Positions 19,153 to 62,057 of a DNA stretch of 64,000 nt are shown here, one piece after another. The stretch spans positions 10,282 through 74,281 of the forward strand of contig JAFDHF010000003.1 of the NCBI GenBank assembly GCA_019308905.1, written 5' to 3'. Each line of letters starts with the position of its first letter. Within the stretch, counting starts at the first letter, position 1. The DNA comes from Deltaproteobacteria bacterium. Lineage in GTDB: Bacteria; Desulfobacterota; BSN033; WVXP01. The position numbers and the translations under genes are program-made. The notes under the pieces were generated by a model that ran no database searches, was not told the origin of the DNA, and worked only from the letters and a program-made list of their open reading frames with translations.

Positions 19153-19713
19153 TTGGCTATGCCGCGAAGTGTCGAGGAATATCCACGGATCAGCTTTCCT
19201 GAGGATGTGCTGGAGCACCGGGTTGACGGCGAGCTATGGTGGGTGGCTCACACCAAGAGCAGGAGGGAAAAGGCGCTTGCCGTTTTGCTGGAGAGGCAGA
19301 GAATCGGGTACTTCCTGCCCCTGATGAAAAAGCGTTACCGGAGCAGTGGCCGGGCCAGAATATCCATAGTTCCCATGTTTTCGGGATATGCCTTTTTCAA
19401 AGGTTCGAGATTGGACCGCTATCATGCTTTGAAGACCGGTCATGTTGCCAACGTTCTCGAGGTCTCTGACCAGCAGCAACTGGTCAGGGAGCTGAAGCAG
19501 ATTCAAAAGGCAATCTGTCTGGATGCCCCGGTTGAACCCTTCCCTTTTGTGAAGCAGGGAAACAGGGTGAGGGTGGTTGATGGACCCTTCATGGGGCTCG
19601 AAGGGGTCATTGAGAGGCGCAAGAGGTCGGACCGGCTGATCCTGTCTGTCGATACCATCAGACGGTCAGTCGCCCTCGAAATCGACGCGGATAGTGTCGA
19701 ACCGGTTTCCTGA
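19153..19713 (+). CDS. NusG-paralog transcription antiterminator (UpxY/LoaP/TaA-like; NGN + KOW)
   Basis: NGN-type N-terminus (WWVAHTKSRREKALAVLLERQRIGYFLPL...). KOW-like C-terminus (VRVVDGPFMGLEGVIER). 186 aa is too short for housekeeping NusG, and the gene sits at the head of a polysaccharide-type locus. Confidence 0.7.
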   Translation: MAMPRSVEEYPRISFPEDVLEHRVDGELWWVAHTKSRREKALAVLLERQRIGYFLPLMKKRYRSSGRARISIVPMFSGYAFFKGSRLDRYHALKTGHVANVLEVSDQQQLVRELKQIQKAICLDAPVEPFPFVKQGNRVRVVDGPFMGLEGVIERRKRSDRLILSVDTIRRSVALEIDADSVEPVS

Positions 19714-28270: not shown

Positions 28271-29703
28271 AAGCGGTTGTCTATCGGCCCAACGACGGCT
28301 TTCTCTGCGAAGAGAACGGGACCAGTGCACCGACCACGTACAGGGTCTTCCCATACTCCCTTGCCGTTTGCGCGGCTTCCCTGGAGGAATCCGGCGTGGA
28401 GGTGGGGGTGGTGGATGCCGCGGCAGGACGGCTGGGGTGGCAGAAGGCGATCGGCCTGGTCGAGAAGGAGAGGCCCGAGGTGGTGATAGTGGCCGTGAAC
28501 AACATTGCAGCAGGCCTCGATATGCAGGGGATAGAGCAGATGAAGTCCCGCCTGGCCATACCTGTGGTGGCCCTCATGACACACCCCATGGAAGAGGAGA
28601 CGATCCGTTCCTACCCCTTCCTGGACGTGGCGATTCGGAGGGAATGGAGTTCGACTGCGGTCGACGTCCTAAAGGCCTTGGCGGGAAGAAAAGACCTTGC
28701 CCTTGTTCCCGGTGTGACCCTGGTCCGTGACGGCGAAGTGGTCAGGACGGAAGGGCGTCCCCATCAGGGATTGGACGAAAGGCCTGTTCCCGCCTTACAC
28801 CTCTTCCCCATGAAACAGTATGACTCTTATCAGATAGCCATGTCAGAGGGGTGCAATTACCACTGCTCCTTTTGTTGGTTTTGCGGCTATCCACCATCAG
28901 GTTGGTCGGGCAGGAATATCGACCGCGTCCTGGAGGAACTCCGGAGGTTGAAGAGCTACGGGAGTAAGCCGGTTTTCACCATAGACGACGAGTTGACCTT
29001 CGACCCGGAGTACGCGAAACGGGTGTGCCAAGGCATCGTCAAGGCCAAGATCAACATGATGTTCTCGGCAAACACCCGGGCAGACAGAGCAGAGGACGAA
29101 CTACTTGAAATGATGTCTCGCGCCGGATTCTTCAATCTGCAGTTCGGCGTGGAATCAGGATGCCAGGAGATCCTGGACAGGAACGGGACCAGAAAGACCC
29201 TGGAGCAAGCAAAGGCGGCCTTCGCCTTGCTGGAGAAACACCGGATCGCTTCGAAGGTATTTTTCTTGATCGGCTTGCTCCACGAGACCAGGGAGACCGT
29301 ACAGCAGACCTTTCGTTTTGTCAGGGAGGAGCTCAACCACTACGATGCCTCCTTTGATATCGCCATCCCGTACCCGGGTACGAGCATGCACAGATTCCTC
29401 AAACGGAAGGGGTGGATTCGAACCCTCGACCCGGAGAACCTCTCGTGGATCTATTTCCATGTATACGGCTGCAGGCAGCTCGCAGGGACACCCATGAGGA
29501 AACCTTTCTGGCGGATTGGAAAGATGACCTTTGACGACTTGTACGAGATGGAGAGGAAGTTCTACCGTTATGTCCCTCGGGGCGGTCTGGTGCCGCAGCT
29601 CAAGCGTCTGATGTTCAATCGTGCTTTTCGAAGGACGACCAGGGATCTGCTCTGGCACGAACCGGGCGAGCTCCTCGGGCTGGCCGCCCGCCTCCTCAGT
29701 TAG
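28267..29703 (+). CDS. B12-binding (class B) radical SAM enzyme
   Basis: N-terminal cobalamin-binding Rossmann domain, then CNYHCSFC (CxxxCxxC) and the radical SAM core. Confidence 0.8.
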   Translation: MKAVVYRPNDGFLCEENGTSAPTTYRVFPYSLAVCAASLEESGVEVGVVDAAAGRLGWQKAIGLVEKERPEVVIVAVNNIAAGLDMQGIEQMKSRLAIPVVALMTHPMEEETIRSYPFLDVAIRREWSSTAVDVLKALAGRKDLALVPGVTLVRDGEVVRTEGRPHQGLDERPVPALHLFPMKQYDSYQIAMSEGCNYHCSFCWFCGYPPSGWSGRNIDRVLEELRRLKSYGSKPVFTIDDELTFDPEYAKRVCQGIVKAKINMMFSANTRADRAEDELLEMMSRAGFFNLQFGVESGCQEILDRNGTRKTLEQAKAAFALLEKHRIASKVFFLIGLLHETRETVQQTFRFVREELNHYDASFDIAIPYPGTSMHRFLKRKGWIRTLDPENLSWIYFHVYGCRQLAGTPMRKPFWRIGKMTFDDLYEMERKFYRYVPRGGLVPQLKRLMFNRAFRRTTRDLLWHEPGELLGLAARLLS

Positions 29704-31132: not shown

Positions 31133-32062
31133 ATGGAGATAGTCCGGATAGACGACATGCAGGCCTGGGAAACCATAAGGGCAGCCACATCGGATCTTCG
31201 TGGTTATTCCTTCAGTTACAGATGGCTCAGCTTCCAGGCCGCCTGGACCGGGGGGAAAAGGATAACGGTTGCACTGTACGGTGATGACGGGAGGCTCCTG
31301 GATGTCTTTGCAGGTGTGGAAAGGGGAGGAGTCGTACTGGCCGGGCCGGAAAAGGCGCCCGGGGGATGCATCGACCCGTGTCATCTGACCGCCTTCTCCG
31401 AGTACTTCTCGAAGAAGAAGATGTACCTTACCTCCCTGCGCCGATTTCCCTTCAGGCACGACGAAAACTACGAACTGGTAATCGATCTGAAGGGCATTGA
31501 ATCCCTGGATCAGTTCGTGAGAGAGAGGGTTTCCAGAGATGCAAGGCAGCGTTACGGGAAGGCGAGGAGGAAGGGGTACGAGGTGAGGCCCGGCCTTGTC
31601 GACGACTTCATGGAGTGCTACTTGGAGTTGAGCCGAAGAAAACGGGTCACCTCTCCATTTCCGAAAGACTATTTCGAAAGGATGATGAACCACCTAGGCG
31701 ACGAAGCGATCTTGAAGTCCTTCTGGCTGGGAGAGGAGCTCATGGGTTCGTCGCTCCTTTTCGTAACCCCGGCACAGATCCATTCCTATTTCCTCCTGTC
31801 GAAGCAGAAGGCCTTCAAGGACGGCCTCTCAGCGCTTATCTATCTCGACATGGTGGCAGAAGCCCTCAGGCGGGGCAAGGGCACGGCCAATTGCGGTCCC
31901 TCTTCGCCATGGGACGGCACCTTCGCGTTCAAGAGACGGTTCGGTGCAAGGCCGCGCAGGGTTTTTTCTTACATCGTAAACGGCGGTTTCCTGGAAAGAA
32001 TGCTCTTCCTGGCAAAGACCAAAGTGAAGCAACACGGCAATGGTTCACCGTTCACTGCTTAG
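31133..32062 (+). CDS. FemAB-family / GNAT-fold acyl(aminoacyl)transferase
   Basis: C-terminal ...FAFKRRFGARP is characteristic of FemAB/Acetyltransf_6. Size about 300 aa. Confidence 0.55.
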   Translation: MEIVRIDDMQAWETIRAATSDLRGYSFSYRWLSFQAAWTGGKRITVALYGDDGRLLDVFAGVERGGVVLAGPEKAPGGCIDPCHLTAFSEYFSKKKMYLTSLRRFPFRHDENYELVIDLKGIESLDQFVRERVSRDARQRYGKARRKGYEVRPGLVDDFMECYLELSRRKRVTSPFPKDYFERMMNHLGDEAILKSFWLGEELMGSSLLFVTPAQIHSYFLLSKQKAFKDGLSALIYLDMVAEALRRGKGTANCGPSSPWDGTFAFKRRFGARPRRVFSYIVNGGFLERMLFLAKTKVKQHGNGSPFTA

Positions 32063-33032
32063 GAGACTCAAGGTCGGAACGAAACATCTCCTGGATCACA
32101 TCCGGCCGTATTTTCTCTTGACCGGGATTTCGCCCATACCCGGATACACGGCGCGGCAGTTCGGGAGCCTTATTCACAGAGAAGCCTCGGTCCGAGGCCG
32201 GCTGGGTCTCTGTGAGCCTGCGTGGTTTCAGATGAACCGGGGCGCCTTCTGCAGAAACATCAGGGTGCCGGGCAAACACTTTTGCTATGTAGGTGAGGAC
32301 TCTTCCCTTCTGGACAGAACCGTCCGATCCCATACGATGGTCTTTGACGGAGCAATACTGGAAGGCAGGGAATGCCCCGCAAGGGGGATCACCGTCTCGG
32401 TGGATCTGGAGGGGAATACCGCCTCGAGTTGTGATGGCTCGGCCGGAGAACGGGAAGTTCAAAGGGAGGCTGCCGAACGGGCCAGGATCATCCATTCGAT
32501 ATTCCAAGATCTGGGGCTGAGAACCGTCTGGTATGTCGTGGGGTCTCTGTTTGAGGATCGAGAAATGAAATCGCTCTGTGAGGAGATCATGGACGACCCA
32601 AACATCGAGATCGGTTGGCATACCCAGAACCACATAAACTACTTCGATGCGGACGAGGACGCGGTGAAGAGAGACATGGAATGCGCCGACACGATACGCC
32701 ACAGATACTCTCTCGACATGACCGCGATGGCCTTTCCGTACAACGCGGTCGGCTACGTGGAAGAGGTGATCGCAAACGGGTTCACGAAACTGAGAGGATA
32801 CGTGGGACAGTACAGCCTTCCCTTCACCGTCGATTTCGGCATGTTCCTGTTCTGCGGGACGACTCTGTACCTGGGCCCACACACGGTGGCCGCATCTCGT
32901 CGCGCCTTGAGCGCGATCAAGGGAGGCTCGAACATATTCCTGCATCCGGTAGACTGGATCGGGTGTGACCTCGACCCTCTCAGACACGCCCTGGAGAGCC
33001 TCCGGGCCACATTCAATCAGGCCGAATCCTGA
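32040..33032 (+). CDS. Polysaccharide deacetylase (CE4/NodB)-like protein
   Basis: ITVSVDLEG (Asp motif) and GWHTQNH (H-T-x-x-H) are consistent with CE4. Start uncertain. Confidence 0.5.
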   Translation: MVHRSLLRRLKVGTKHLLDHIRPYFLLTGISPIPGYTARQFGSLIHREASVRGRLGLCEPAWFQMNRGAFCRNIRVPGKHFCYVGEDSSLLDRTVRSHTMVFDGAILEGRECPARGITVSVDLEGNTASSCDGSAGEREVQREAAERARIIHSIFQDLGLRTVWYVVGSLFEDREMKSLCEEIMDDPNIEIGWHTQNHINYFDADEDAVKRDMECADTIRHRYSLDMTAMAFPYNAVGYVEEVIANGFTKLRGYVGQYSLPFTVDFGMFLFCGTTLYLGPHTVAASRRALSAIKGGSNIFLHPVDWIGCDLDPLRHALESLRATFNQAES

Positions 33033-33041: not shown

Positions 33042-34598
33042 ATGAGACTCATGACTGACCCATTGGTCCTCATTTCAGGCCTGGCCTTGGCCTGCATCGG
33101 CTACAACTCCCTCTGGTATGCCCGCTTCAGGGATTCCCTTGAGGACACTGATTTTGGGTATGCCAGCTACCACGGGTGCAAGGCCGGGAAGGAGGGGAAT
33201 CGCAGAGTCCTCTCAGAGGCCGGAGACTTTCCGTCTTTCAAGACGATCCTGTACTACTTCTTCTATTGGTCATATGGGCTTTCCAGGTCACCGGTTCGGG
33301 CTCCGCGGATTCTCTTCTGCATCGTCGATACCTTCGGCGTGATCTTCTTCTCCCTGGCTCTCTATCTGCTCTCCCGTTCACCATCTCAGACGATCATGGG
33401 CACATTGGTTTTCTGTGTCCTCTCTTCGGCCCCGCAACTCGGAGGGTTGTATCTCCAATCCGAGTTCTGGGCCCTCACGTTTACCTCCGCCGCCCTTGCC
33501 CTCATTTTGTCGAACAATCCCTTCTCCGCCTTTGCCGGGGGAATGTGTCTCGCCGTAAATCCTCTCTCTGTGAAGCCCGTCTATCTCGTGGAATCCATGG
33601 TTCTTATCTCCTTGGCGCCGGGAGATCTCAAAGCACCTGTGGGAACTGGTTTTGTTGCTTGTGCCTGTCTCATCCTATTGCTATACGGGAAGGACGGTTT
33701 CCTGGGATGGATTCCCTTCCATCTCAAGGACCGGGGGATGCTCAAGTATTTCTTGAAGTTCAACAGAAGGGGCTCAGGCAGGAGGAGGATCCGGAACCTG
33801 ATCGTATTTTTCCCTGTCTTTTTCACGGTCTTTCCACCACTGATCGCCCCTGCGTTGTCGAACCCGCAGGCCTTACCGACAAGGCTCTGGGCTTTGGCTG
33901 TTGCAGAAGGGCTTATCGTGGTGGTGCAGTTTCGGTTTTTCAGGTATCACTTCGTCACGCTTCTCCCCGGTTGGGTCTTGCTGTTTGCATGCGCCCCCTT
34001 TTCGGTTCTTCACCTCCCCGGGTTCATCCCCGTGGCGTACACCCTATCTTTCCTTTTCTTCAAGAGCAGGGAAGGCCTCGACCGGCGCCTGAACGGTGTG
34101 ATAGTCCACTACCACACGAGGAACTGTGCCGCGCGGCCTATTGCCGAATGGATCAGGGAGAACACGAGCCCCCGGGATCGCATACTGGTTGTTGGGAGTA
34201 CTTTTCAGATATACGTGCATAGCGAGAGGCTCTCTATGTATCCACGGCTGTTTTTCACACCTGAAGTTACTTACAGCAACCCACAGTCAATACGGCTCAT
34301 GGAGAAGACGTTGGCCGGAGCGCCTCCAAAGGCGATCGTCCTCGATCAGAACTGTCTGAACTGGAAGATGGTCGAGTATCTTACAGGGTCGCGCTACAGA
34401 TTCGCAAAGGGTTTCCGATGGAACTCTGAATTTTTCCCCATATACATGAAGGCAGAAAGCGTCGATCGAAAGGCCCCGGAAAACAGAGAACTCTTCATAG
34501 AGTGCCTCCATGTAACCGAGAAACGCCTTTTGTGGAATCCGATGCCGCGACCCGGAGGTATCGATCCCAACCCCACGGCTTTCTGTGAGAGCACGTGA
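33042..34598 (+). CDS. Polytopic membrane protein, GT-C-like (ArnT/PMT-type) glycosyltransferase candidate
   Basis: Many hydrophobic helices in the N-terminal 350 aa, soluble C-terminal domain. No stronger signature. Confidence 0.5.
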   Translation: MRLMTDPLVLISGLALACIGYNSLWYARFRDSLEDTDFGYASYHGCKAGKEGNRRVLSEAGDFPSFKTILYYFFYWSYGLSRSPVRAPRILFCIVDTFGVIFFSLALYLLSRSPSQTIMGTLVFCVLSSAPQLGGLYLQSEFWALTFTSAALALILSNNPFSAFAGGMCLAVNPLSVKPVYLVESMVLISLAPGDLKAPVGTGFVACACLILLLYGKDGFLGWIPFHLKDRGMLKYFLKFNRRGSGRRRIRNLIVFFPVFFTVFPPLIAPALSNPQALPTRLWALAVAEGLIVVVQFRFFRYHFVTLLPGWVLLFACAPFSVLHLPGFIPVAYTLSFLFFKSREGLDRRLNGVIVHYHTRNCAARPIAEWIRENTSPRDRILVVGSTFQIYVHSERLSMYPRLFFTPEVTYSNPQSIRLMEKTLAGAPPKAIVLDQNCLNWKMVEYLTGSRYRFAKGFRWNSEFFPIYMKAESVDRKAPENRELFIECLHVTEKRLLWNPMPRPGGIDPNPTAFCEST

Positions 34599-36901
34599 TG
34601 TCATCGGTATCCATACTCATCGGTATCGTAACAGTACAATCCCTGGTGCGGATCGTGTATTCTCTCAGGCTCTTCTTCGAGGCTGACTACTGTATGAATT
34701 CCCAATACGACGTGGTCCTTCAAAGTGGGGGCAAGCCAGGGCGGGATTTCGAAATCTGCTGGGGGGCAAAAATCGTATCGTACTTTGGATGCCGGTTGGC
34801 GAGGCGCCTGCTCCCCTTCGGTATATATGCACCACGCATCGCCCTCGTGTTTGTTCAGGTCTTGACAACCGTCGTCGTGTTTATCCTCACCCTTCACGTT
34901 TCAAATTCCCATGTCGGTGCGGTGAGTGCAGCAGCCATATACGCTGTGGTTTCGTCTCTGATCCACACCGGGACATACGTCTGTAGTCCCGAGAACTTCG
35001 ATGTAATGGCCTTGGCGGTTCTCGCCTCGTGCCTTGTCTTTCCATCGGTCGCGACGGCGGCACTGGCAGGTCTGGTGCTTGCCCTCATGATTTCGTGGTC
35101 AAAGATGGTCGACGCCTTCCATGCGGGTCCTGTGTTCTTTTTATACTGGATCAACGGTCGCAGGGGCCTGTCCTTCGTTTTTCTGGGATCGCTGGCTGTC
35201 TTCCTTGCAGCCTCGGTCGTCCATTACAGGATGAGTCCTTACTATCAGCCCCTCTCAGGGATCCTTAGGAAGGCGTATCGCTATGCTACCCGGACACAGG
35301 ACAGATCGAAGAAGAAGCTGTTCCACATCAGTCTGACAGGAGCCGAAAGGCTTCTCTGGAGGGGGCTGCTCAGGGAGATCCCGGTCGTTCTGTTCGCCCT
35401 TGCGCTCGGCCCCTTGTTCCTCTACCAGTCAGCTTCGGGCAGGGCTGTGGCGTTGCTCGCCTGGAGCGCGGTTTTTGTGATGGTCCTTCAAAACAAGCTC
35501 TGGCCGGTCCACTTCTATCCCGTGCTCTCCCTGGCCTCCGTGCTGGGCGGCTTCCTTGTGGGGGTTCCACCCCTTTGGTATGCCGTTGTCTTTCTTTTCG
35601 GAGTTTCGGTGTATCACTTCCTGAAGCCGCTATCCATACCCGGACACTTGCTTTCAAAGTATTTCTGGCGTGAAGGGACCGGCGCCCTCCATTACCTCGA
35701 TGAGGAAGCCAGCATAGAGGCGGCGGAGTGGATAAGAAGAGACTCTCCCGAGGTGAAGCGGGTTCTCTGCTGGGGGATGCAGACACAACTATATACGCTC
35801 TTGGAGATTATGGGACCAAGACCGATCCAGCATTTCAATCGAGAAACATTGACCATTCCTTCAAGGAGGGAAGAGCTCCTGAGGTGGTTCACCGAATCTC
35901 CACCGGAGTATGTATTCTTCTCCGACCCGTATTTCAGGTACTTTCCGATCCCGATTCTGGAAGGGCTCGCCGGAAAGGAATACCAGAGAGTGGCGATTCT
36001 GGGAGAAGGCTGTTTTCCCCTTTACCGGCTGACCGAAAAACCGGTCGAACAATGGAAGAGACAGGTTGCGGAGTCTGTTGGATTCGACCCGGAAAAGGTC
36101 GACTTCGTTGATCCCTTCTGCAGCAGACAGGCGATCAAAGCCGGGTTCCTCGAAGAAACCCTCGGCAGAATGAAGGGAGCCGGGATACGTTCGGTATATC
36201 TCTACGGTCGGTGTGATCAGGAGAGGATCGCGGAGGAGGCGGCCAAGAGGGGTATCGATATCATCGGCGTCGTTGAAACGGAGCCTTCAAGGGGATCCGG
36301 GGTGTTCTCTCCAAGAGAGGTTGCCTGGCCGGTGGGTGAAGAAACAGGATTTCTGATCACGGCAAGGAGTTACAATTCCATATCCCAGATCAGAGAGCTG
36401 GTAACCGAAAGGCAGCCCGGCGCGAAAATCTTCACGGTTGTGGACGAGTCTCCACTGGTAGACTGGCTCTCCGAGGAATCCAGGGAGAAACCCCTGACGG
36501 TCTACGCCCTGGGGGACAGGGGCCGGTATGTCCTGAATCTCTGCCTTTGCCGGGGTATCCGGACCGTTGGGTTCTTCGACGAAGCGGAGAAGGTCTTTCA
36601 CGGAAGGGGCAACGGTCAGGCCCGGTTCGAAGAATTGAGAGCTCTTCCACTGGATCAGGTCATTCACGGGGAGGGTACCATACTCCTTGGAGGAGCTCCA
36701 TCCACAAACGTCGCGATCTACTTTTCTCTTATCGCAAAAGGGGTGGTGGAATCGAGACTCAAGGATTTTGGAGCGATCTTCGGGCGGTGCTGTCTTCCGG
36801 GGAATTCGAGCGAGGTGAGGGTAGGGCGTTTAGATCCGGAGCGGCGGTCAAAAGATCTCTTGCCCGGGGCCGGTGAGTTCGCATCCCCCCTCTGCCCCTG
36901 A
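34595..36901 (+). CDS. Membrane protein (GT-C-like N-terminus) with two C-terminal Rossmann-like PglD/NeuD-N-like modules
   Basis: About 330-aa hydrophobic N-terminus. C-terminal IRSVYLYGRCDQ...GIDIIGVVE and VYALGDRGRYVL...GIRTVGFFDE segments repeat the module seen in three other island genes. Confidence 0.5.
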   Translation: MMSSVSILIGIVTVQSLVRIVYSLRLFFEADYCMNSQYDVVLQSGGKPGRDFEICWGAKIVSYFGCRLARRLLPFGIYAPRIALVFVQVLTTVVVFILTLHVSNSHVGAVSAAAIYAVVSSLIHTGTYVCSPENFDVMALAVLASCLVFPSVATAALAGLVLALMISWSKMVDAFHAGPVFFLYWINGRRGLSFVFLGSLAVFLAASVVHYRMSPYYQPLSGILRKAYRYATRTQDRSKKKLFHISLTGAERLLWRGLLREIPVVLFALALGPLFLYQSASGRAVALLAWSAVFVMVLQNKLWPVHFYPVLSLASVLGGFLVGVPPLWYAVVFLFGVSVYHFLKPLSIPGHLLSKYFWREGTGALHYLDEEASIEAAEWIRRDSPEVKRVLCWGMQTQLYTLLEIMGPRPIQHFNRETLTIPSRREELLRWFTESPPEYVFFSDPYFRYFPIPILEGLAGKEYQRVAILGEGCFPLYRLTEKPVEQWKRQVAESVGFDPEKVDFVDPFCSRQAIKAGFLEETLGRMKGAGIRSVYLYGRCDQERIAEEAAKRGIDIIGVVETEPSRGSGVFSPREVAWPVGEETGFLITARSYNSISQIRELVTERQPGAKIFTVVDESPLVDWLSEESREKPLTVYALGDRGRYVLNLCLCRGIRTVGFFDEAEKVFHGRGNGQARFEELRALPLDQVIHGEGTILLGGAPSTNVAIYFSLIAKGVVESRLKDFGAIFGRCCLPGNSSEVRVGRLDPERRSKDLLPGAGEFASPLCP

Positions 36902-37766
36902 GAGACCATTGCTCAGGCGCACCGTGTTGTTTTCGAACATCCATTACATAGTTCTGCGGGTGCTGAGAAGATTCGTCTTCCGCGGACGTCTTCTGTCCGT
37001 TTTCGAGAGGAACCTGCCGTACTACAGGACGAATTTCAACGAGATTTCACCCTCTACAGTAGCTGAGAAGTATTCGAAGTACTGTTCCGTTGTGGACATG
37101 AGCCCCAGAGGTAAGAACGTCCTTGAGATTGGAATCGGTGTTACAAACAGTTGTGGTTACGAAATAGTAGCGCAAGGGGCGCGCCGGTGTTGGGGTTATG
37201 AACCGTTTGAGAAGTTCAACGCGGAGCGGGACAGGGCTAGGCTCGACGACGCGGTGCAAAGACACGTGCGAGATTACGACTTCTTTCGTCACAGGTTCAC
37301 CAGAATCGACACTCTGGCCGACCTCGAGGAAGGCTCGATAGAGCTGGTTCTTTCACACAATGTCCTGGAACACGTTACTGCACTTTCAGAGCTGGTGGAC
37401 GAACTGGAGAGGCTGCTGACGAGGGACGGGTGCATGATTCATATAGTCGACTACCGTGACCATTTCTTTGAGTACCCTTATCATTTCCTGCAGTTTTCAG
37501 ACAAGACGTGGAACAGGTTCTTGAACCCCGGCCACTTGCCCAGGTACCGGCTGGACGATCACGTCGAGGCTTTCAGGAGCAAGGGGTTCACGGTTGAGAT
37601 CCTGGAGACGTCGACCGACAATGGGGAGTTTGCGAAGGTTCGCGAAAGAATCAGCCAGAAGTTCAAGGAATACAGCGAGAGGTCGTTGGCAGTGACAACG
37701 GCCGTATTGGCAGTCAGTCGCTCGAAGAACCGGCGGATCCCGGAATATCCGGGATGTGACTTTTGA
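36873..37766 (+). CDS. Class I SAM-dependent methyltransferase
   Basis: VLEIGIGVTNSCGYEIV is motif I. Downstream ELVLSHNVLEHV is motif II/III. Confidence 0.65.
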   Translation: MSSHPPSAPERPLLRRTVLFSNIHYIVLRVLRRFVFRGRLLSVFERNLPYYRTNFNEISPSTVAEKYSKYCSVVDMSPRGKNVLEIGIGVTNSCGYEIVAQGARRCWGYEPFEKFNAERDRARLDDAVQRHVRDYDFFRHRFTRIDTLADLEEGSIELVLSHNVLEHVTALSELVDELERLLTRDGCMIHIVDYRDHFFEYPYHFLQFSDKTWNRFLNPGHLPRYRLDDHVEAFRSKGFTVEILETSTDNGEFAKVRERISQKFKEYSERSLAVTTAVLAVSRSKNRRIPEYPGCDF

Positions 37767-38964
37767 CTCTGGTGGTACGGGATGTCCGGTTGGAGTGTCG
37801 AGCAAGTCGTTTCGGGATGAATGCGTAATGGTCCAGGAAGTCGTTCTCAGGAGCCTTATGCGAAAGGCAATCATGCCTTTCGGGAAATACGACGGGAAAA
37901 AGGTCTTCAACTTCACCCTCAATGTTTTGGAACGCTTCATGCGGAGGAGAAGGCTCGTGTCTTTTCCGATAGGGATCGATCTGATCAGCACGACCAGGTG
38001 TAATCTCAAATGTTTCTATTGCAAGAAGTACGACTGGGGAGGGAAACAGGATTTCACGAGGGACGACTTCGAGTTTGTTGCAAAGACGTTTTTTCCGAGA
38101 CTGTTGTATGTGAAGTTTGGATCTGCAGGTGAAGCGCTGGTCAACAGGGATCTGGGTTTTATGCTCGAGAAATGTCGTGAGTATGGCGTCTCCGTGGTAA
38201 TGAATTCGAACGGCTCCCTCCTCGATGAGGAAAAAATCGAGATGCTCTTCGAGCAGGACGTGAAGATCTTCGGGATATCACTCGACGGGGCCACAAGGGA
38301 GACGGCAGAGGGGATTCGAAGGGGCCTCGATTTTGAGCTATTGATCGAAAAGATCAGAATGATCAGAGACTTGAAGGAACGGTACGGGCGGAAGTACCCG
38401 ATCTTGACGGTCAACTTCGCCGTGATGAGACGGAATATCACGGAACTCCCGTCGTTTGTCGGCCTCATGTCGGACCTGGGAGTATCTGCCGTCCGTGTGA
38501 TGTTCCTCTACGTCCACGAGTTCATGGATCCTGGGGAATCCCTGTTCCTGCATCGGGAGCTGGTGGAGAAGTATTTTGCCTTGGCCGGGAAAAGTGCGAG
38601 GGCCTCCGGCATCAGGCTGCTCTTGCCCCCTGGGTTGGAGGGAAGAAACGGGGACAGGATGTGCTTTTTCCCCTATCACGAGATAGGACTGAGTCCTGAC
38701 GGGTCGGTCGCCTTTTGCTGTAATGCATGGGGTGAAGAGAAGATGGGGAATGTTTTCAAGCAGGATTTCATGAGTGAAATCTGGAACTCCGGGAGATACC
38801 AGGAGTTGAGGCGGCGGGTGAACAGTTCCAGGCCGATGCATACCCTCTGCCGAGAGTGCTCGGCCCTGGACAGAGGGGTCGGTGGGATCTCGAGGCATTT
38901 TGCCCGAGAGCACCACACCCGTGTAAGGGAGATGATTTTATCCCAATACGGGCGGCCTGTTTGA
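37756..38964 (+). CDS. Radical SAM / SPASM-domain protein
   Basis: CNLKCFYC (CxxxCxxC) and a C-terminal Cys cluster (CCNAWGE...CRECSALD) fit a SPASM/twitch auxiliary cluster. Probable start is ATG 37828. Confidence 0.75.
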   Translation: MTFDSGGTGCPVGVSSKSFRDECVMVQEVVLRSLMRKAIMPFGKYDGKKVFNFTLNVLERFMRRRRLVSFPIGIDLISTTRCNLKCFYCKKYDWGGKQDFTRDDFEFVAKTFFPRLLYVKFGSAGEALVNRDLGFMLEKCREYGVSVVMNSNGSLLDEEKIEMLFEQDVKIFGISLDGATRETAEGIRRGLDFELLIEKIRMIRDLKERYGRKYPILTVNFAVMRRNITELPSFVGLMSDLGVSAVRVMFLYVHEFMDPGESLFLHRELVEKYFALAGKSARASGIRLLLPPGLEGRNGDRMCFFPYHEIGLSPDGSVAFCCNAWGEEKMGNVFKQDFMSEIWNSGRYQELRRRVNSSRPMHTLCRECSALDRGVGGISRHFAREHHTRVREMILSQYGRPV

Positions 38965-39010
38965 TACAGGACATGCGCCCTTTTGGGGCCGGTGGAGGCG
39001 GTCCCTGGCC

Positions 39011-40510
39011 ATGAAAGTCGTACTCATCAATCCTCCCCAGGTATTTTCGAAGTCACAGGTTGCAGCCGGTGTCATCCCCCCCTTGGGTCTGCTCTACCTA
39101 GCCGCTGCTTTGAGGCAGTCAGGGCATGTGCCCCTGATAATCGATTCTGTTGTCGAGGCCGCAACAAATATCTACAGGATCAGCGGCAGTATTGCCTGCA
39201 GGGGGCTTGAGATCGACGAGATCGTCGCCCGTATACCGAAAGATACGGGTTTGGTGGGGGTAAGCAATCTCTTTTCTTTCGCCTTCCCGGTCGTGAAGAG
39301 GCTTACAGAGCAGATCAAGAGGGTCCGCCCGGATGTGGGAATCGCCGTGGGCGGCGCCCACCCATCGGCCTTGCCCTTGGAGACCGTGTCCGAGAAGTCG
39401 ATCGACTTTGTGGTCATAAGCGAAGGCGAGGAAACACTCACCAAACTCCTAAACAATCTGGGAGACCATGAAGCTTACAGGGGGATAGATGGGTTGGCCT
39501 ACAAGGGCAGGGAGGGAATTCCCTGCGTCAATCAGAAGGCCGAGTTTATCGAGGATCTAGATGGTCTTCCCTTCCCTGCGAGGGACCTGGTTCCCCTAGA
39601 GAAGTACTATGAGATAGGCGAGGCCCATGGTCCGACCCAGGGCAGGAGGTGGACGCCGATTCTCTCGTCAAGGGGCTGCCCGTACCAGTGTACCTTCTGT
39701 ACCCCGAGGCTGTGGGGAAGAAGATACCGCGTTAGATCGGCCGAGAACGTGCTGGCCGAGATAGAGGAGTGCCAGAGGGAGTACGGAATAAGGGAGTTTC
39801 ATTTCGAGGACGAGAACCTGACGATAGACAAGAGAAGACTCATGGAGATTTGCAATGGGATCATCGAACGAGGCCTGGAGATAAGATGGCAGACTCCCAA
39901 CGGAATAAGAGCATCTGTTACCGATGTGGAAATGCTCGATCTGATGAAGGAGTCGGGGTGCTGTCACGTCACCGTGGCTCCTGAATCAGGCTCCGAAAGG
40001 GTTCTCAACGAAATAATAAGAAAGCGGCAGGACCTCGCAAAGGTGACGCGCCTTGTCAGGCATGCCCACCGGAGGGGCCTAAAGACCGCAGCCTATTTTA
40101 TCATGGGCCTACCCGGTGAGACCAGGAAGGACGTGGAGATGTCGATCGATTATGCCTGCCGCCTGGCAAAGGCAGGACTGGACGAGGTCGTTTTCTCGAA
40201 TTTTGTTGCTCTTCCGGGTTCGGAACTTTTCGACAGGCTTCTAAAGGAGGGAAGATTCCACGGGGATTGGTCGAGACTCGTGGCCATGGGTGATATTTCG
40301 ACTGCAGAATCCTGGTCCGAGGGAATCACCTCCAGAGAGCTCAAGGCGCTGAGAAGGAAGGCCTATCTGAAGTTCCACTTGGTCAAAGCCTTTTGGTACC
40401 CACTGAAGGCCATGAGATCGGTTCTGAACGTTCTGAGAAAAAGGGAAGAGCTCAAGACAGAGAGGGTGTTGATAACCTTTATCAAGAGGATCGGCTTGAG
40501 AACGGGTTGA
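39011..40510 (+). CDS. B12-binding (class B) radical SAM enzyme
   Basis: N-terminal B12-binding fold (VVLINPP...GHVPLIID), then CPYQCTFC and the radical SAM core. Confidence 0.8.
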   Translation: MKVVLINPPQVFSKSQVAAGVIPPLGLLYLAAALRQSGHVPLIIDSVVEAATNIYRISGSIACRGLEIDEIVARIPKDTGLVGVSNLFSFAFPVVKRLTEQIKRVRPDVGIAVGGAHPSALPLETVSEKSIDFVVISEGEETLTKLLNNLGDHEAYRGIDGLAYKGREGIPCVNQKAEFIEDLDGLPFPARDLVPLEKYYEIGEAHGPTQGRRWTPILSSRGCPYQCTFCTPRLWGRRYRVRSAENVLAEIEECQREYGIREFHFEDENLTIDKRRLMEICNGIIERGLEIRWQTPNGIRASVTDVEMLDLMKESGCCHVTVAPESGSERVLNEIIRKRQDLAKVTRLVRHAHRRGLKTAAYFIMGLPGETRKDVEMSIDYACRLAKAGLDEVVFSNFVALPGSELFDRLLKEGRFHGDWSRLVAMGDISTAESWSEGITSRELKALRRKAYLKFHLVKAFWYPLKAMRSVLNVLRKREELKTERVLITFIKRIGLRTG

Positions 40511-40634
40511 ATTAGGTGGTCGAATCCCGATTCTGAGGGTTTGCGGGTTCAGCGTGTTGCCGGCTCGACAGAGGGTCGGCCGGTTTGACAACCAATCTGC
40601 CGCCGGCACTCGGTTCAGAAGGAGGACATAGCTG

Positions 40635-42065
40635 ATGAACGAAATCAAGGACGGCAACCCGAGCTTTCTTCTGATCGGGCACTACCGGTGCGGCACCTCT
40701 CTGCTGAGGCACGTGATCAACCGCCACTCCAGACTGCTACTGACGACGGAGGCTCATTGGCTCCCCCAGGTGTTTCAGGCCGGGGCGGTCTTCCAGAAAT
40801 TCTTCGAGGTTAACCCCGTTGAGTTTGAACTGAACGAGTTGCCCCTGCAGAGAACTTCCCGCTGGTATCATGGGATTCGTGCATTGCACTCGGCTCTTTT
40901 CGAAGAACATCGGGACAAGATATGGGGCATGACAGTAATCGGCCACGGAAACGCCGCATACGCCGATTATCTGTTTACCCTGTATGGGGAAGCCAAGTAC
41001 GTCCTGGCGATTCGTGATCCGAGGGATATTTACCTTTCATATCTTCGAACCAATATCGGGGGGGAATACGGTGCGTATACGTTGAAGACCTTCTTGAACC
41101 ATCTCAATATGAACGGCTTGCCGTACCTTGTAGTTCGATATGAGGACATGGTCATTGACCCGAGGAGACAGATAGAGAGGCTGTGCTGTTTTCTCGGGGT
41201 GGACTATGAACCGGGTATGCTGGAGCCACTGACTCGCAGACTGTCCGGGAACTTGACGCCGGCCCTCCAAAGGGCCGCTTTGAACGAGGAGTATCCGGTG
41301 GGAAATCGGGCACTGGTCGAAAGGTGGAAGTCCCAATTGACCGACGAGGCACTCCTGAGACTGAACGATCAGGTGGATGCCATCGATCAGTTGGGATACC
41401 CGGTCGTCAGGGCCGAGGGTGCCGGGTTGCGCCACAGCATCAGAGACGAGGTCTCGGGGACCTTGATCGGCATGAAGGACTCCCTTACCAAAAGGGATTG
41501 TTTCTCGGGTGCCCTTCCTGAAAGGGTCGACATTCTTTCGGCAGGGGCGTTCGGGATCCGATTTCAGAACCGGCCTGGCAACGGCACGGCAAGAATCAGA
41601 ATCGATGGTTTCGGAGAACTCGCTGAGAGCATGGAGTCGCCCCTGCTTTACTACCATGCCGTCTACGGATCTCCTTTACCCTTCCATCCTGTCTATGGGG
41701 AGTCTTTTCCCACTGAGAGGAAGTGGAAGTATCTGTTGAAACAGAACAAGAGGAGGCTCCTGCTCTTTTCCGCCGGAGGTGCGACCAGGGCGTTTTTATC
41801 AGGGCAAACGATCCCGACCTCGGAATTCGAGATCGTAGGCGTGATCGACAATCACAAAAGGGGATTCATGGACCATGGGGGCAAGCGGTACAGGATCTAC
41901 CCGCTCAAGAAGGCACTGGAAGTCGACCACGATGCGATTCTCATCACCTCTCCCACCTTCCGTCATGAGATAAAGGAGTGTTTGGTCAAATGCGGGCTCA
42001 GGGAGAACAGGGATTTCTACTGCTTTTTCCCAAGCCGGTGTGCGGGGAGTGGAAAGTTCGAATGA
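40635..42065 (+). CDS. Sulfotransferase (P-loop 5'-PSB type) fused to Rossmann-like PglD/NeuD-N-like module
   Basis: FLLIGHYRCGTSLLRHVINRH is the PAPS 5'-phosphosulfate-binding loop. C-terminal RLLLFSAGGATRAFL...FEIVGVIDNHKRGFMDHGGKRYRIYP...DAILITS is the repeated module. Confidence 0.7.
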   Translation: MNEIKDGNPSFLLIGHYRCGTSLLRHVINRHSRLLLTTEAHWLPQVFQAGAVFQKFFEVNPVEFELNELPLQRTSRWYHGIRALHSALFEEHRDKIWGMTVIGHGNAAYADYLFTLYGEAKYVLAIRDPRDIYLSYLRTNIGGEYGAYTLKTFLNHLNMNGLPYLVVRYEDMVIDPRRQIERLCCFLGVDYEPGMLEPLTRRLSGNLTPALQRAALNEEYPVGNRALVERWKSQLTDEALLRLNDQVDAIDQLGYPVVRAEGAGLRHSIRDEVSGTLIGMKDSLTKRDCFSGALPERVDILSAGAFGIRFQNRPGNGTARIRIDGFGELAESMESPLLYYHAVYGSPLPFHPVYGESFPTERKWKYLLKQNKRRLLLFSAGGATRAFLSGQTIPTSEFEIVGVIDNHKRGFMDHGGKRYRIYPLKKALEVDHDAILITSPTFRHEIKECLVKCGLRENRDFYCFFPSRCAGSGKFE

Positions 42066-42128
42066 AGACGTGTTTCCCTGTTCCCGTCGGAATGCACCAC
42101 GAAAATCGAACACTATAGAGGTGGAATC

Positions 42129-43211
42129 ATGATCAGCGTAGTCATACCTGTTTACAATGAAGAGAAGAACATCGATCTACTGTACGATCGGCTCTCCTCT
42201 GTTCTGTCTCAGCTAAAGTATGACTGGGAGATCATCTTTGTGAACGACGGGAGTGAAGATAATTCTCTCGAGATACTGAAAAGGTACGCAAGCCAGGACA
42301 GAAGAGTAAAAATCATAAGTCTCAGCAGGAATTTCGGCCATCAGGTCGCACTGAGCGCAGGAATGCGGGAGGCAAGGGGTGTCGTGTGTGTCACCATGGA
42401 TTGTGATCTCCAGGATCCTCCTGAGCTGATTCCAGCCATGATAAGAAAATACGAAGAAGGGAACAATATTGTCTATGCGAGGAGAACGAACAGATCCGAC
42501 GGTTTCCTGAAGAAGCTGACCGCAAGGGTCTATTACAAGATATTGGATTTGATCTCCGAGGTCCGCGTCCCCCAAAACGTCGGGGACTTCAGGTTGGTCG
42601 ACAGGAAGGTTTTGACGGTCCTGAACAACCTGCCGGAGAAATGCAGGTACCTTAGAGGTATGGTCAGTTGGGTCGGATTCAAGCAGGCCTTTGTGGAATT
42701 CGACAGGCCCAACAGATGCAATGGGAAGACCAGTTACACCTGGATAAGGATGCTTGAACTCGCTGCAGCCGGTATTCTGAGCTCCTCGCTCCTGCCACTA
42801 AAGTTGGGGATGTACATTGGAATGCTCTCGATGATTGTGGGTTTTGGGTTTCTCATATACATGATCGGAGACACTCTTGTATTCAACACCGTGTACCCTC
42901 TGTACAGGTGGCTCATGGTAGTCGTCTTTGTCTTCTTCGGGCTCAGTTTTATTCTCATTTGGATAATGGCGGAATATATAGGAAGGATCTACAAGGAAGA
43001 AACTGGAAGGCCGCTTTACATCATCGACGAGAAGACAAATCTTGAAACTCAAGTCAGTGAAGATAATCAATTGTACAGTCCCGTATGTGATTGCTCCTGG
43101 GTGGAGATGGGTGAACGGACGTTGAACGGCGACCGTGTCGATTACGGATCTGACCCTCTTGCGGCCGGGCCTGATGGAGAGAGTCTCGAAGTCGCTCACT
43201 CATTGCAGTAA
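42129..43211 (+). CDS. GT2 polyprenyl-phosphate sugar transferase (ArnC/GtrB/DPM1-like)
   Basis: MISVVIPVYNEEKNIDLLYDRL...EIIFVNDGSEDNS...DCDLQDPP, plus two C-terminal TM helices, as in ArnC/GtrB. Confidence 0.8.
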   Translation: MISVVIPVYNEEKNIDLLYDRLSSVLSQLKYDWEIIFVNDGSEDNSLEILKRYASQDRRVKIISLSRNFGHQVALSAGMREARGVVCVTMDCDLQDPPELIPAMIRKYEEGNNIVYARRTNRSDGFLKKLTARVYYKILDLISEVRVPQNVGDFRLVDRKVLTVLNNLPEKCRYLRGMVSWVGFKQAFVEFDRPNRCNGKTSYTWIRMLELAAAGILSSSLLPLKLGMYIGMLSMIVGFGFLIYMIGDTLVFNTVYPLYRWLMVVVFVFFGLSFILIWIMAEYIGRIYKEETGRPLYIIDEKTNLETQVSEDNQLYSPVCDCSWVEMGERTLNGDRVDYGSDPLAAGPDGESLEVAHSLQ

Positions 43212-43230: not shown

Positions 43231-44379
43231 ATGGAGAAGAACATACTGATCATCAACAACGAATTTCCGCCGATCGGAGGGGGTGCCGGAAATGCCTCTT
43301 TCTACCTTGCCAAAAATCTCTCGAAACTCGGGCATAGAGTCAGGGTTGTAACTGCGGGGTTCCGTGACCTCCCTCCCAGGGAGGAGGAGGGCGGAGTCAC
43401 AATCAACCGTGTGAAATGCAGCAGAAGGAAACGGTTTGAGTCGGGGCTTTGGGAACTTCTGTCATATGCTGGAAGCGCCGTGAGATTCATATCCCGGGAA
43501 TTGAAGGCCGGCGGAGAAAGGTATGATATCTCGATATGCTTCCACACCCTTCCAGCAGGGATGGTGAGTTATGCCTTGCTAAGAAACTCGAATGTACCGT
43601 ACATAGTCATGCTGCGAGGGGGGGACGTGCCGGGTTTTCTTCCCGAGAGGTTCAGATACTACCACATGGTTTCCATGCCGGTGATCAAGGCTGTGTGGAA
43701 GAACGCACGGCACGTGGTGGCGAACTCGAAAGGACTGGGGGAGCTGGCTGGAAGAACGGCATGCAGGATCGGCCGGGAGGTCCTGGTCATAGAGAACGGC
43801 GTCGATCTTTCCTCATTTCAAGCCCGAAGCAGACACCGGTTCGATGGAACCCTGAGAATGCTCTTTGTGGGCCGGTTGGAGAAACAGAAGGGCATTCCCT
43901 ATCTGATAGAGGCCGTGTCTCTGCTCGCAGTGGAAGACCGCGAAAGGGTCAGAGTCGATCTGATCGGAGAAGGACCCGAAAGGGCGGTTTTGGAAGAGAT
44001 GATAGAGGAGAGAGGGCTCCGCAATTTCAGGTTCCTGGGGTATTTCCCTCATGACAGAATCAGCACGCGATTCGGGGAGGCGGATCTGTTCGTCCTCCCA
44101 TCCCTTTACGAAGGAATGCCGAATGCCCTTCTCGAGGCGATGGCAGGAGGGCTTCCTGCATTGGTAACGGATATCATGGGCAACAATGAATTGGTTGAGA
44201 ATGAAATAAACGGTTTTCTGGTCCCCCCTGCTGATCCGTGGGCGCTGAGGGCTGCCATAATGAGATTCCTGGAACGCCCCGAGTTGCTCTCAGAATTCCG
44301 AGAAAACACCCTGTGCAGGGTACGGAAATTCGATTGGATGAAGGCGACACAAGAGTTGAACAACCTGATAATGAGCTAG
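43231..44379 (+). CDS. GT4-family glycosyltransferase
   Basis: ILIINNEFPPIGGGAGNASFYLAKNL N-terminus and PSLYEGMPNALLEAMAGGLPALVTD (E-x7-E). ATG 43231. Confidence 0.85.
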   Translation: MEKNILIINNEFPPIGGGAGNASFYLAKNLSKLGHRVRVVTAGFRDLPPREEEGGVTINRVKCSRRKRFESGLWELLSYAGSAVRFISRELKAGGERYDISICFHTLPAGMVSYALLRNSNVPYIVMLRGGDVPGFLPERFRYYHMVSMPVIKAVWKNARHVVANSKGLGELAGRTACRIGREVLVIENGVDLSSFQARSRHRFDGTLRMLFVGRLEKQKGIPYLIEAVSLLAVEDRERVRVDLIGEGPERAVLEEMIEERGLRNFRFLGYFPHDRISTRFGEADLFVLPSLYEGMPNALLEAMAGGLPALVTDIMGNNELVENEINGFLVPPADPWALRAAIMRFLERPELLSEFRENTLCRVRKFDWMKATQELNNLIMS

Positions 44380-45437
44380 TGCCCGTCCGGAAAGCCCCTG
44401 TTCACGTCCGATCAGTTCAGAAAAAAGACTCGAGTCTCTGGGATTTCCTCGAACCACCCGACAGTCAAGAATCAAACCCGAACGGCCGCCTGTCAGATAG
44501 ACCTTATGACCGTAACACGGCTCACGTCCCCCTTTTTCGATGATGCCGGTATGATCTTCAAAAAACGAAACCACCTTCTCAGAGGCTGCAACCTTCTCCC
44601 CCCGAATCACCCGACGCTCGGTCTGATCGATCACTCGCCCGAAGATCATCAGCTCCCGCTCCAGCTTCTCCATCAATACCCGAGCCCGGCAAAACTCTCC
44701 TACATCATCGCTCTGAAAATGATCCAATGCCGATATGGCCTCTGTAGTATAACCCACAACCCGACGAGCCACCCCGAGAAGCTCTCGGTAAGCCTTCTGG
44801 CGAACTTTGCTGCTCCTGCTGTTGACAATGGCCATGACTCGCCTGTTTGCCACCCGTCGGTGGTCCGAAAACCGATACCCAGGCACAGGCCGAAGCCGTT
44901 TTCCCTCAATCAAAAGCCGAGTGATAAGCCGGATGCCATCCTCCAGAAGCCTGGAGTCCGTAGGATAATGGATATTGCTCTCAATGGCCGTGGAGTCGAG
45001 CCGAACCGTACGACCCTTCTTGAACCCTTAAACCACAGCGTATCGGATGAGCAGCCTGTTGACCGCCTCCCGGGTACCGGGCCTAAGTTGCTTGATGTTT
45101 TATTGAAGGGTCGATACCCCAGCCGCTGCCCCATCCCAAGCCGACAAGAGGCCCGAAAGGACTGAGAATCCTCCAGATGAAAGGCCAGCTCCTCATAGCT
45201 CAAATTGCGATACTGCTTCAATATGGTACATCGAAGGACCTGCTCGGCCGTCATCCCCTCACGCCCCGTGTCAGGACGCTTGGCCCGAACCATATCCCGA
45301 TAAACAAGATCATAGATGCCTGGATTGTCATCGAGAACTCTCGAAATGGCCTCCAGTTCTCGGGCGACCTGGTTGCGCGGCATGGTGTGGAAAATACTCA
45401 GTTGAGAAATCCGTTTTTCACGCATCTTTATCCCCAC
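44290..45437 (-). pseudogene. IS5/ISNCY-type transposase, frameshifted and 3'-degenerate
   Basis: N-terminal fragment (44910-45437) has a DUF772/InsH-N-like segment (...GREGMTAEQVLRCTILKQYRNLSYEELAFHL...). It continues in another frame (44290-44913) into a DDE-region remnant. The tail overlaps the upstream GT4 gene, so the reading frame is not intact. Confidence 0.65.
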
Positions 45438-45580
45438 AGAATAGAGATTTGTCTAACTATTTCAAGACCTTATTGTGAGGATGATACACCGAATAACATG
45501 AAAATACAACACAAAAATGACCACATATTCAATTAAATCAATCAATTAGAGTTTCCGGATGGAGTCTATCTACCTGCAAT
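44380..45580 (-). mobile_element. Degenerate insertion-sequence remnant with AT-rich junction
   Basis: The only minus-strand coding signal in the window. Base composition drops sharply at 45440-45580 (runs of A/T such as ATTCAATTAAATCAATCAATTAG). No intact terminal inverted repeats were identified by eye. Confidence 0.5.
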
Positions 45581-56685: not shown

Positions 56686-56701
56686 GAAGGGATAGCGAGC
56701 C

Positions 56702-62035: not shown

Positions 62036-62057
62036 CCAATTCACGGGAGGAGAAAGG

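Follow-up and report, generated by a model that had tools for sequence, protein, structure and literature searches.

The window analysed here, a 64-kb stretch of contig JAFDHF010000003.1 from a Deltaproteobacteria bacterium, carries a putative flagellin-glycosylation island in which a GtrB/ArnC-type polyprenyl-phosphate sugar synthase is encoded in the same gene run as two polytopic membrane proteins, called ORF1 and ORF2 (open reading frames 1 and 2) in the following. We found that the synthase and these two GT-C-fold paralogues are integral, conserved parts of the island and that they are not transporters. Moreover, the Lys and Arg residues of the pair and of its nearest relatives are distributed over the loops in the reverse of the canonical manner. 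Our leading reading, which we put forward tentatively and at rather less than even confidence, is that an undecaprenyl-phosphate (Und-P) sugar is relayed on the cytoplasmic face of the membrane and feeds the island's own, probably flagellin, glycan. We base it on the charge bias, on the lack of a flippase and of an exported partner, on the wholly cytoplasmic character of the island, which lies between fliD and a FliT-like gene, and on the restriction of the family to clusters of this kind.

The original prediction had delimited the three ORFs at 33042-34598 (ORF1), 34595-36901 (ORF2) and 42129-43211 (synthase), and a six-frame ORF map returned them exactly. Homologues at 44-64% identity in syntenic metagenomic contigs show that all three are real genes and not chance reading frames. 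The last one had been taken for a GtrB/ArnC-like synthase, and the searches bore this out. PF00535 matched residues 3-162 (4.6e-37), residues 2-306 aligned over the full length to residues 28-333 of Synechocystis GtrB (5ekp, E 2e-83), and the PDB search also aligned the protein to ArnC residues 10-313 (E 2e-40), while Dol-P-Man synthase (DPMS) matched the N-terminal part only (residues 2-120, E 7e-18). A D-x-D catalytic motif, D91-C-D93, was read from the translation, and hydrophobicity indicated two transmembrane (TM) segments at the C-terminus (~221-251 and ~262-285). The protein is a bona fide GtrB/ArnC-type polyprenyl-phosphate sugar synthase and an ordinary member of its family, which moves one sugar from a nucleotide sugar to undecaprenyl phosphate on the inner leaflet. 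PgfS was its best NCBIfam match (4e-72), under the cut-off; since neither the PgfS equivalog (242.9 bits, cut-off 500) nor the ArnC equivalog (164.6 bits, cut-off 529) was reached, the carried sugar cannot be named. A homologue with 64% identity was found in a syntenic locus, L001.

The two membrane proteins had been described as GT-C-like, with a structure search proposed to tell ArnT/PMT-like from WzyC-like or novel proteins. Compared directly or as single-family profiles with Pfam, NCBIfam and PDB sequences, neither gave a match. ORF1 has 11 predicted TM helices, a D35-x-D37 motif in the first loop, a very basic loop at residues 219-256 and a C-terminal alpha/beta domain (residues 375-518). 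ORF2, whose start overlaps the ORF1 stop by 4 nucleotides (nt), has an ORF1-like membrane core and alpha/beta domain, an E29-x-D31 motif and ~280 extra C-terminal residues. The two are paralogous (hhalign 97.8%, E 1.3e-12 over 426 columns). Among 33 distant relatives of the family, 11 carry Pfam PMT_2 (e.g., P0022, 43.5 bits), and against a profile of four PMT_2 proteins hhalign gave 98.5% (E 3.5e-15) for ORF1 and 93.3% (E 2.7e-7) for ORF2. AlphaFold2 (AF2) modelling of ORF1 was unusable with a 4-sequence alignment (predicted local distance difference test score, pLDDT, 51.6) and worked with a 19-sequence alignment, giving a pLDDT of 90.6 and a predicted template modelling score (pTM) of 0.90. 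In a Foldseek search against the PDB with this model, ArnT came first (5f15, E 1.7e-6, template modelling score 0.55) and the next 26 matches were all GT-C-fold proteins, among them STT3, PglB, ALG12, DPY19, AftA, AftB, AftD, PIG-U, PimE and EmbB; transporters appeared only at E > 0.3 and with a probability below 0.15.

The alignments also placed possible catalytic positions. D37 of ORF1 aligns with the invariant Asp of the first-loop 'RDEG' motif in PMT_2 relatives, D31 of ORF2 shares its column in the family alignment, and E141, K178 and the H-[YF]-[FY] motif are conserved in both paralogues and in canonical relatives; H303 of ORF1 is conserved as well. The Glu of the canonical 'DE' motif is lost, F38 of ORF1 standing at that column. 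The top PDB sequence match of the family (A4) profile was TMEM260, at a non-significant E of 0.35. Remote PMT_2 homology, the ORF1 model and its Foldseek matches together support the assignment of ORF1 and ORF2 as extremely divergent GT-C-fold proteins of the ArnT/PMT_2 lineage, for ORF2 through profile homology only. Their fold, and a GtrB-type gene encoded in the run that holds them, lead us to infer that both putatively use a polyprenyl-phosphate-linked donor. For the ORF2 C-terminal extension, Pfam and PDB gave no match except a designed Rossmann-like protein; within residues ~490-768 we noticed two Rossmann-like beta-alpha stretches (e.g., LTVYALGDRGRYVLNLCLCRGIRTVGFFDE) and nine cysteines, and the extension may resemble the N-terminal domains of NeuD/PglD.

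It had also been considered that the membrane proteins could turn out to be transporters such as Wzx. Size and the many TM helices are all that speaks for this idea, or for Wzy polymerases or O-antigen ligases. No Pfam family of these kinds was matched, the first 27 Foldseek matches are GT-C-fold proteins, no such structure stands among the significant ones, and the profile-profile links lead to PMT_2 proteins. Transporters and Wzx flippases are therefore excluded on these grounds, and we give the whole group of functions hardly any weight.

We then considered on which side of the membrane these enzymes would work. Loop boundaries were obtained by mapping the AF2 helices onto the family alignments, and Lys and Arg residues (K+R) were counted per loop with home-made scripts for ORF1, ORF2 and 17 relatives, the subfamily of the counts below (n = 19). 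Results showed that the canonical cytoplasmic loops (N-tail and IL1-IL5) hold only 0-4 K+R in sum and the canonical periplasmic loops 13-28. Individually, the outside loop EL1 has 5-9 K+R, EL4 (after TM7) has 6-15 within 38-63 residues, and 2-6 follow the last TM helix. The PMT_2-positive relatives, on the contrary, have 7-11 K+R in cytoplasmic and 4-12 in periplasmic loops (EL1 left out), and P0051, read by hand, shows the classical N-in, 11-TM, C-out pattern. The N-tails of the subfamily are 1-6 residues long with 0-1 positive charge. Of 17 subfamily members run through a separate, crude per-protein predictor, 15 came out with the C-terminus inside, at biases of, for example, 4 vs 28 or 0 vs 25. 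In addition, the C-terminal soluble domains contain 2-9 Cys, one of them (C488) conserved and unpaired, whereas canonical relatives mostly have 0-1.

According to the positive-inside rule, basic loops are expected on the cytoplasmic side, so the basic loop after TM7 and the C-terminal domain are predicted to be cytoplasmic; as the GT-C fold puts the first loop on the same side, the whole enzyme would be inverted. The rule thus predicts for the subfamily an inverted GT-C with its active site facing the cytoplasm. A mixed topology of 10 TM helices, with the first loop outside and the C-terminus inside, fits the charges and was rejected as unlikely, since the GT-C fold needs both loops on the same side.

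We also looked for the partners that a periplasmic route would require. Every ORF of at least 60 amino acids (aa) in the window was scanned for hydrophobic segments, counting those with two or more. The only credible multi-span proteins were the synthase, ORF1 and ORF2; the other matches were two antisense ORFs over the flagellin and fliD genes, with two weak segments each. No GtrA, ArnE/F, Wzx, Wzy, ligase, phosphoglycosyl transferase, ABC exporter or Wza/Wzc exporter was found in the 64 kb, and no Sec-type N-terminus or signal peptide among the island proteins. The six related loci gave the same picture, with no flippase, exporter or exported protein and only further GT-C paralogues as polytopic proteins. 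The original prediction had assumed action at the periplasmic face and left the choice between a different periplasmic target and an unconventional route; the reversed K+R distribution with respect to canonical relatives, and a window that encodes neither flippase nor exporter nor any exported protein, do not support this assumption. The evidence shifts weight to the unconventional route, making it slightly the likelier of the two.

The surroundings of the module were annotated from the ORF map with Pfam and NCBIfam scans of the whole window, whose genes are almost wholly co-directional. At its 5' end stand late flagellar genes, encoding FlgI, a rod-binding protein, FlgM, FlgN, FlgK, FlgL, flagellin, FlaG and FliD; FlgI is 81% identical to a homologue from a metagenome-assembled genome of an uncultured Thermodesulfobacteriota and at most 57% identical to all else, which places the organism among the uncultivated members of this phylum. 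The glycosylation island follows from ~10 kb to ~62 kb of the window, about 50 kb. Its transferases are the Maf-like proteins at 56702 and 60266 (Maf_flag10_N, DUF3880 and Glyco_trans_1_2 domains), a related TPR fusion (10148), and GT4, GT2 and GT9 enzymes. Other island genes encode methyltransferases, seven radical-SAM proteins, an AsnB-type amidotransferase, a sulfotransferase and a nonulosonic-acid set (HAD-NeuB fusion, SIS isomerase and CMP-transferase). With flagellar genes upstream, and Maf-like genes and a weak FliT/FlgN-like gene downstream, the flagellin-glycosylation context that had been presumed holds. It is reasonable to consider the locus a flagellin-glycosylation island by content and position, flagellin glycosylation itself being predicted from the genes. 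The premise that flagellin O-glycosylation is cytoplasmic likewise agrees with established knowledge. The only claim of a lipid carrier in flagellin glycosylation that we found, made for Aeromonas (PLoS One 2014), has since been retracted.

Relatives of the pair are scarce. A word-seeded search of 5.8 billion proteins returned just 4 relatives of ORF1 and 3 of ORF2 (P0005-7), and HMMER, run exhaustively against 1.84 billion cluster representatives, found 46 proteins. P0020 (769 aa) was discarded as a member, as 13 repeated stretches and implausible Pfam matches (P53, CHASE8, FlbT and others) gave it the look of an artefact. No further loci with ORF1 or ORF2 relatives were found in public genome and metagenome contig collections. 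Judged by sequence, this is a very rare family that lacks any Pfam or NCBIfam model and a new branch of the ArnT/PMT_2 lineage.

In the loci examined, every member of the family lies in a cluster with many radical-SAM, methyltransferase, AsnB and GT4 genes. The order FemAB-like, CE4 deacetylase-like, GT-C1, GT-C2, methyltransferase is kept in L001, L002 and L045, and L001 also keeps radical-SAM genes and the GtrB homologue. In the distant loci L046, L048/L049 and L050/L051 the GT-C genes lie amid radical-SAM/SPASM, methyltransferase, AsnB, epimerase and GT4 genes. The most constant neighbour of the GT-C genes is a homologue of the GT4 gene at 43231, found directly 3' of the GT-C gene(s) in L045, L046 and L048/L049 (tblastn, ~31% identity, E 1e-35 to 1e-42). 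Flagellin, FliD and Maf genes were not detected by tblastn within 10 kb of the distant family members. In L048, positions 7339-14550 hold three polytopic GT-C-like paralogues (593, 539 and 630 aa) with a methyltransferase and a GT4 interleaved, surrounded by carbamoyltransferase, WbqC, aminotransferase and radical-SAM-SPASM genes, and several copies of this GT-C type per cluster appear to be common.

These contexts, together with the residues described above, also bear on the idea that the GT-C-like proteins keep the fold without being transferases of the GtrB product. As scaffolds, they might fix the cytoplasmic glycosylation enzymes to the membrane close to the flagellar export gate; or they might use another lipid-linked donor, in which case the GtrB-like gene would serve an unrelated envelope function. 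The distant family members without a nearby GtrB-like gene, the constancy of the GT4 homologue as neighbour, the loss of the second 'DE' residue (F38 at the Glu column) and an ORF2 extension that matches no family are consistent with it. Conservation of D37/D31, E141, K178 and H-[YF]-[FY], however, argues for retained catalysis, and in the closest locus, L001, the GtrB gene is kept in the same run. We consider this idea improbable.

Coming back to the cytoplasmic relay, we propose the following sequence of events. The GtrB-like enzyme would make an Und-P-sugar on the inner leaflet, and the sugar could be edited on the lipid by the adjacent CE4-like and other tailoring enzymes, as by ArnD in the Arn pathway. 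The two GT-C enzymes would then pass it to an acceptor, with the D-x-D loop, E141, K178, the basic loop after TM7 and the C-terminal domain all facing the cytoplasm. Such a relay would run on the inner leaflet without a flippase and would supply the cytoplasmic glycan pathway of the island itself. As acceptor, the flagellin glycan or its lipid-linked precursor would be the most plausible, before flagellar type III export. That inverted GT-C enzymes deliver an Und-P-linked sugar or a lipid-tailored glycan to flagellin or its glycan before export, with no flippase needed, is a proposal to which we lean with similar caution, and slightly more of it.

Several points weigh against this cytoplasmic relay. 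To our knowledge, none of the characterised GT-C enzymes has its active site on the cytoplasmic side, which makes the prior for an inverted GT-C low, and a literature search found no report of a cytoplasm-facing GT-C. The orientation is predicted from the positive-inside rule through home-made charge counts; with 38-63 residues, EL1 and EL4 approach the loop length at which this rule loses force, TM6 spans only ~10-14 residues in the model, so that the helix parity leans on canonical homology, and the crude predictor miscounts TM helices (3 instead of 2 for the GtrB control). In anaerobes, the number of cysteines says little about the compartment. A GtrB homologue was seen in the closest locus L001 only; in L048 and L050 the 10 kb around the GT-C genes have no called GT2 gene, and those called in L045 and L046 do not resemble GtrB. 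Nor is it obvious what a cell with nucleotide sugars at hand would gain from a lipid-linked donor. Lastly, flagellin is no more than a candidate acceptor, proposed from the island context.

Almost as likely, and likewise short of an even chance, is a conventional route of the Gtr, Arn or Pgf kind, with an unlinked flippase and the GT-C pair at the periplasmic face. Filament flagellin travels through the type III channel and is out of periplasmic reach; the module would therefore serve something else, such as lipid A or the lipopolysaccharide (LPS) core, a glycolipid, a periplasmic or outer-membrane protein, or a Sec-exported flagellar part (rings, sheath), and would stand in the island merely through shared sugar precursors or regulation. 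Every characterised GT-C acts in this way, ArnT is the best structural match, and a GT2 synthase with a CE4-like deacetylase and an ArnT-like GT-C recalls the Arn and Lgm lipid A pathways. Flippases are frequently encoded elsewhere, the segment 25218-33032 is XrtA/PEP-CTERM exopolysaccharide-like, an UpxY-like antiterminator heads the run, and the relative P0019 has C-terminal TPR repeats as in the TMTC O-mannosyltransferases. Moreover, streptococcal GtrB with PgtC2, for which a mechanism of protein O-glycosylation was described, and PgfS with PgfM1 glycosylate extracytoplasmic proteins (bioRxiv 10.1101/2024.05.05.592596). On the other hand, this route needs the export of two loops, one of 38-41 residues carrying 10-11 Lys/Arg and one of 56 residues carrying 7-9, along with a domain of 170-430 residues, leaving just 0-4 positive charges on the supposed cytoplasmic side, unlike in canonical relatives. 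It also has to account for a window and six related loci without a flippase, exporter or exported protein, and for genes that are tightly coupled to those of cytoplasmic enzymes.

As a whole, the module recalls the Arn, Gtr and Pgf systems, without their flippases and pathway partners. With the Arn pathway it shares a GT2 Und-P-sugar synthase, a CE4-like gene beside the transferases and ArnT as closest structure; it differs in that ArnA, ArnB, ArnE and ArnF were not found among the annotated window ORFs, and in that the island pair matches neither the ArnT NCBIfam model nor PMT_2, consists of two paralogues, lies in a flagellar context and has a reversed charge. As in Gtr O-antigen glucosylation (GtrA, GtrB, GtrC), a synthase whose nearest solved structure is GtrB would provide a monophosphoryl-lipid donor to polytopic transferases, but the 64 kb lack a GtrA-like small membrane protein, the island has no O-antigen genes and its GT-C pair comes from another, very rare branch. 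The streptococcal Pgf system (PgfS, PgfM1, PgfE, PgfM2) likewise has a GtrB-like synthase and two GT-C proteins in one operon; no sequence similarity was detected between the GT-C parts, and both Pgf and GtrB/PgtC2 belong to Gram-positive hosts, where the acceptors are extracytoplasmic Ser/Thr-rich disordered regions. PMT_2 (PF13231), PMT, TMTC and TMEM260 proteins are alike in the 'RDEG' Asp and the C-terminal alpha/beta domain, with remote significant homology to PMT_2, from which the island pair differs by falling below Pfam detection, by the replaced 'DE' Glu, by the lost charges of the cytoplasmic loops and by the strongly basic loop after TM7. Finally, Maf-type islands (Campylobacter, Helicobacter, Aeromonas, Shewanella, Pseudomonas) also stand beside fliC-flaG-fliD and carry Maf-like or TPR-fused transferases, NeuB and a CMP-transferase, while the present one is unusually large at ~50 kb, with seven radical-SAM genes and a NusG paralogue. 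We know of no described flagellin glycosylation island with GtrB-type or GT-C genes, and a literature search pairing the two found no description.

GT-C enzymes such as oligosaccharyltransferase, ArnT, the PMTs and the mycobacterial arabinosyltransferases are the textbook deliverers of sugars outside the cytoplasm. If true, an inverted branch would overturn the rule that they serve there: it would provide the first GT-C that faces the cytoplasm and the first route to flagellin glycosylation through a lipid carrier. Bacterial flagellin glycosylation would gain a second, membrane-bound route, and sugars would be seen to be tailored within the cell on a lipid carrier as on a workbench. If the conventional reading holds, there would still be a very rare, unannotated GT-C family tied to radical-SAM/methyltransferase sugar-modification clusters, and uncultured Thermodesulfobacteriota would be expected to make a periplasmic glycoconjugate whose genes lie with those of the flagellum.

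Table 1. Coordinates (window numbering) of the synthase, the GT-C pair, their neighbours and the island boundaries.
Feature	Position	Strand	Basis
Flagellin (280 aa), FlaG and FliD, upstream island boundary	6362-9575	+	Pfam Flagellin_N/C, FlaG, FliD_N/C
Flagellin gene alone	6362-7204	+	Pfam
FliD gene alone	7665-9575	+	Pfam FliD_N/C
NusG paralogue (UpxY/RfaH-like antiterminator) heading the gene run of the module	19153-19713	+	PF02357, KOW
FemAB/GNAT-like acyl- or aminoacyl-transferase	31133-32062	+	PF13480 7e-7, TIGR03019 pepcterm_femAB 2e-10
CE4 polysaccharide-deacetylase-like, directly upstream of the GT-C pair	32040-33032	+	PF01522 24.3 bits vs cut-off 23.1, marginal
GT-C paralogue 1 (ORF1), 518 aa, ATG start	33042-34598	+	AF2, Foldseek, hhalign
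GT-C paralogue 2 (ORF2), 768 aa, GTG start	34595-36901	+	hhalign to paralogue 1
Four cytoplasmic tailoring genes: methyltransferase, radical-SAM-SPASM, B12-radical-SAM, sulfotransferase	36873-42065	+	Pfam, NCBIfam
GtrB/ArnC-type polyprenyl-phosphate glycosyltransferase, 360 aa	42129-43211	+	PF00535, PDB matches
GT4, directly downstream of the GtrB gene	43231-44379	+	PF00534 8e-39
Downstream island boundary: two Maf-like genes, GT9, ORF, weak FliT/FlgN-like gene	56702-63132	+	Pfam
Maf-like transferase 1	56702-58537	+	Maf_flag10_N, DUF3880, Glyco_trans_1_2
GT9 gene	58534-60279	+	
Maf-like transferase 2	60266-62035	+	Maf_flag10_N, DUF3880, Glyco_trans_1_2
ORF without assignment	62058-62714	+	
Weak FliT/FlgN-like gene	62692-63132	+	FliT 25.7 bits, FlgN 25.5 bits, both under Pfam cut-offs

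The neighbours of the pair are tightly packed with it (Table 1): a 10-nt gap is followed by overlaps of 4 nt and 29 nt. The GT-C genes run in the same direction as those of the cytoplasmic sugar-tailoring enzymes and are in part translationally coupled to them. Homologues of the CE4-like protein, at 44-59% identity, adjoin the GT-C pair in L001, L002 and L045, and homologues of the FemAB-like protein are present in L001 and L002. We tried to tie the CE4-like protein to ArnD and found no NCBIfam or PDB match to support it; by analogy, it is possible that it acts as an ArnD-like enzyme on a lipid-linked sugar. The four tailoring genes stand between the GT-C pair and the GtrB gene, and the order in L001 is identical. 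The segment 25218-33032 (+) resembles a PEP-CTERM exopolysaccharide core, with AsnB-like, stp2-like GT4, FemAB-like and CE4-like genes, the AsnB-like amidotransferase scoring 627 bits with the XrtA/PEP-CTERM amidotransferase model TIGR03108; no exosortase or export gene is present in this segment.

The NusG paralogue stands at the head of the long co-directional run 20750-44379, and its best NCBIfam matches are UpxY (77.5 bits) and RfaH (52.7 bits), both under cut-off. Specialised NusG paralogues occur in capsule, LPS and polyketide operons, and we know of none from a flagellin glycosylation island. Between 19 and 44 kb no convincing intergenic terminator was found, and a promoter scan did no better than on shuffled sequence. 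The remnant of an IS5-type transposase (44290-45437, minus strand; PF05598 DUF772, 26 bits) lies between the GT4 gene and the next TPR gene and coincides with a GC dip to 0.51 and a reversal of GC skew. No terminal inverted repeats were found around it, the plus-strand ORFs 44506-45165 and 45177-45536 are probably spurious, and the same arrangement recurs in locus L053.

At 20750-22276 (+), a HAD domain like that of KdsC or Kdn-9-phosphate phosphatase is fused to NeuB (NeuB_NnaB 311 bits and PseI 221 bits, both under cut-off), and a SIS isomerase and then a CMP-transferase follow; this set suggests a route to a nonulosonic acid via a phosphorylated intermediate. Radical-SAM genes were located at six plus-strand positions (28267-29703, 37756-38964, 39011-40510, 46897-47859, 47903-49057 and 49916-50998), of which 39011-40510 resembles the Sden_1168-family B12-dependent P-methyltransferases (249 bits, under cut-off). 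Their very high density, seven in the island, together with the sulfotransferase at 40635-42065, hints at very unusual sugar decorations. At 55009-62035 (+), two GT9 (heptosyltransferase-like) genes of 560-580 aa alternate with the two Maf-like genes. As GT9-type enzymes that act on proteins are known from autotransporter heptosylation, the island GT9 genes may, by analogy, encode further flagellin transferases.

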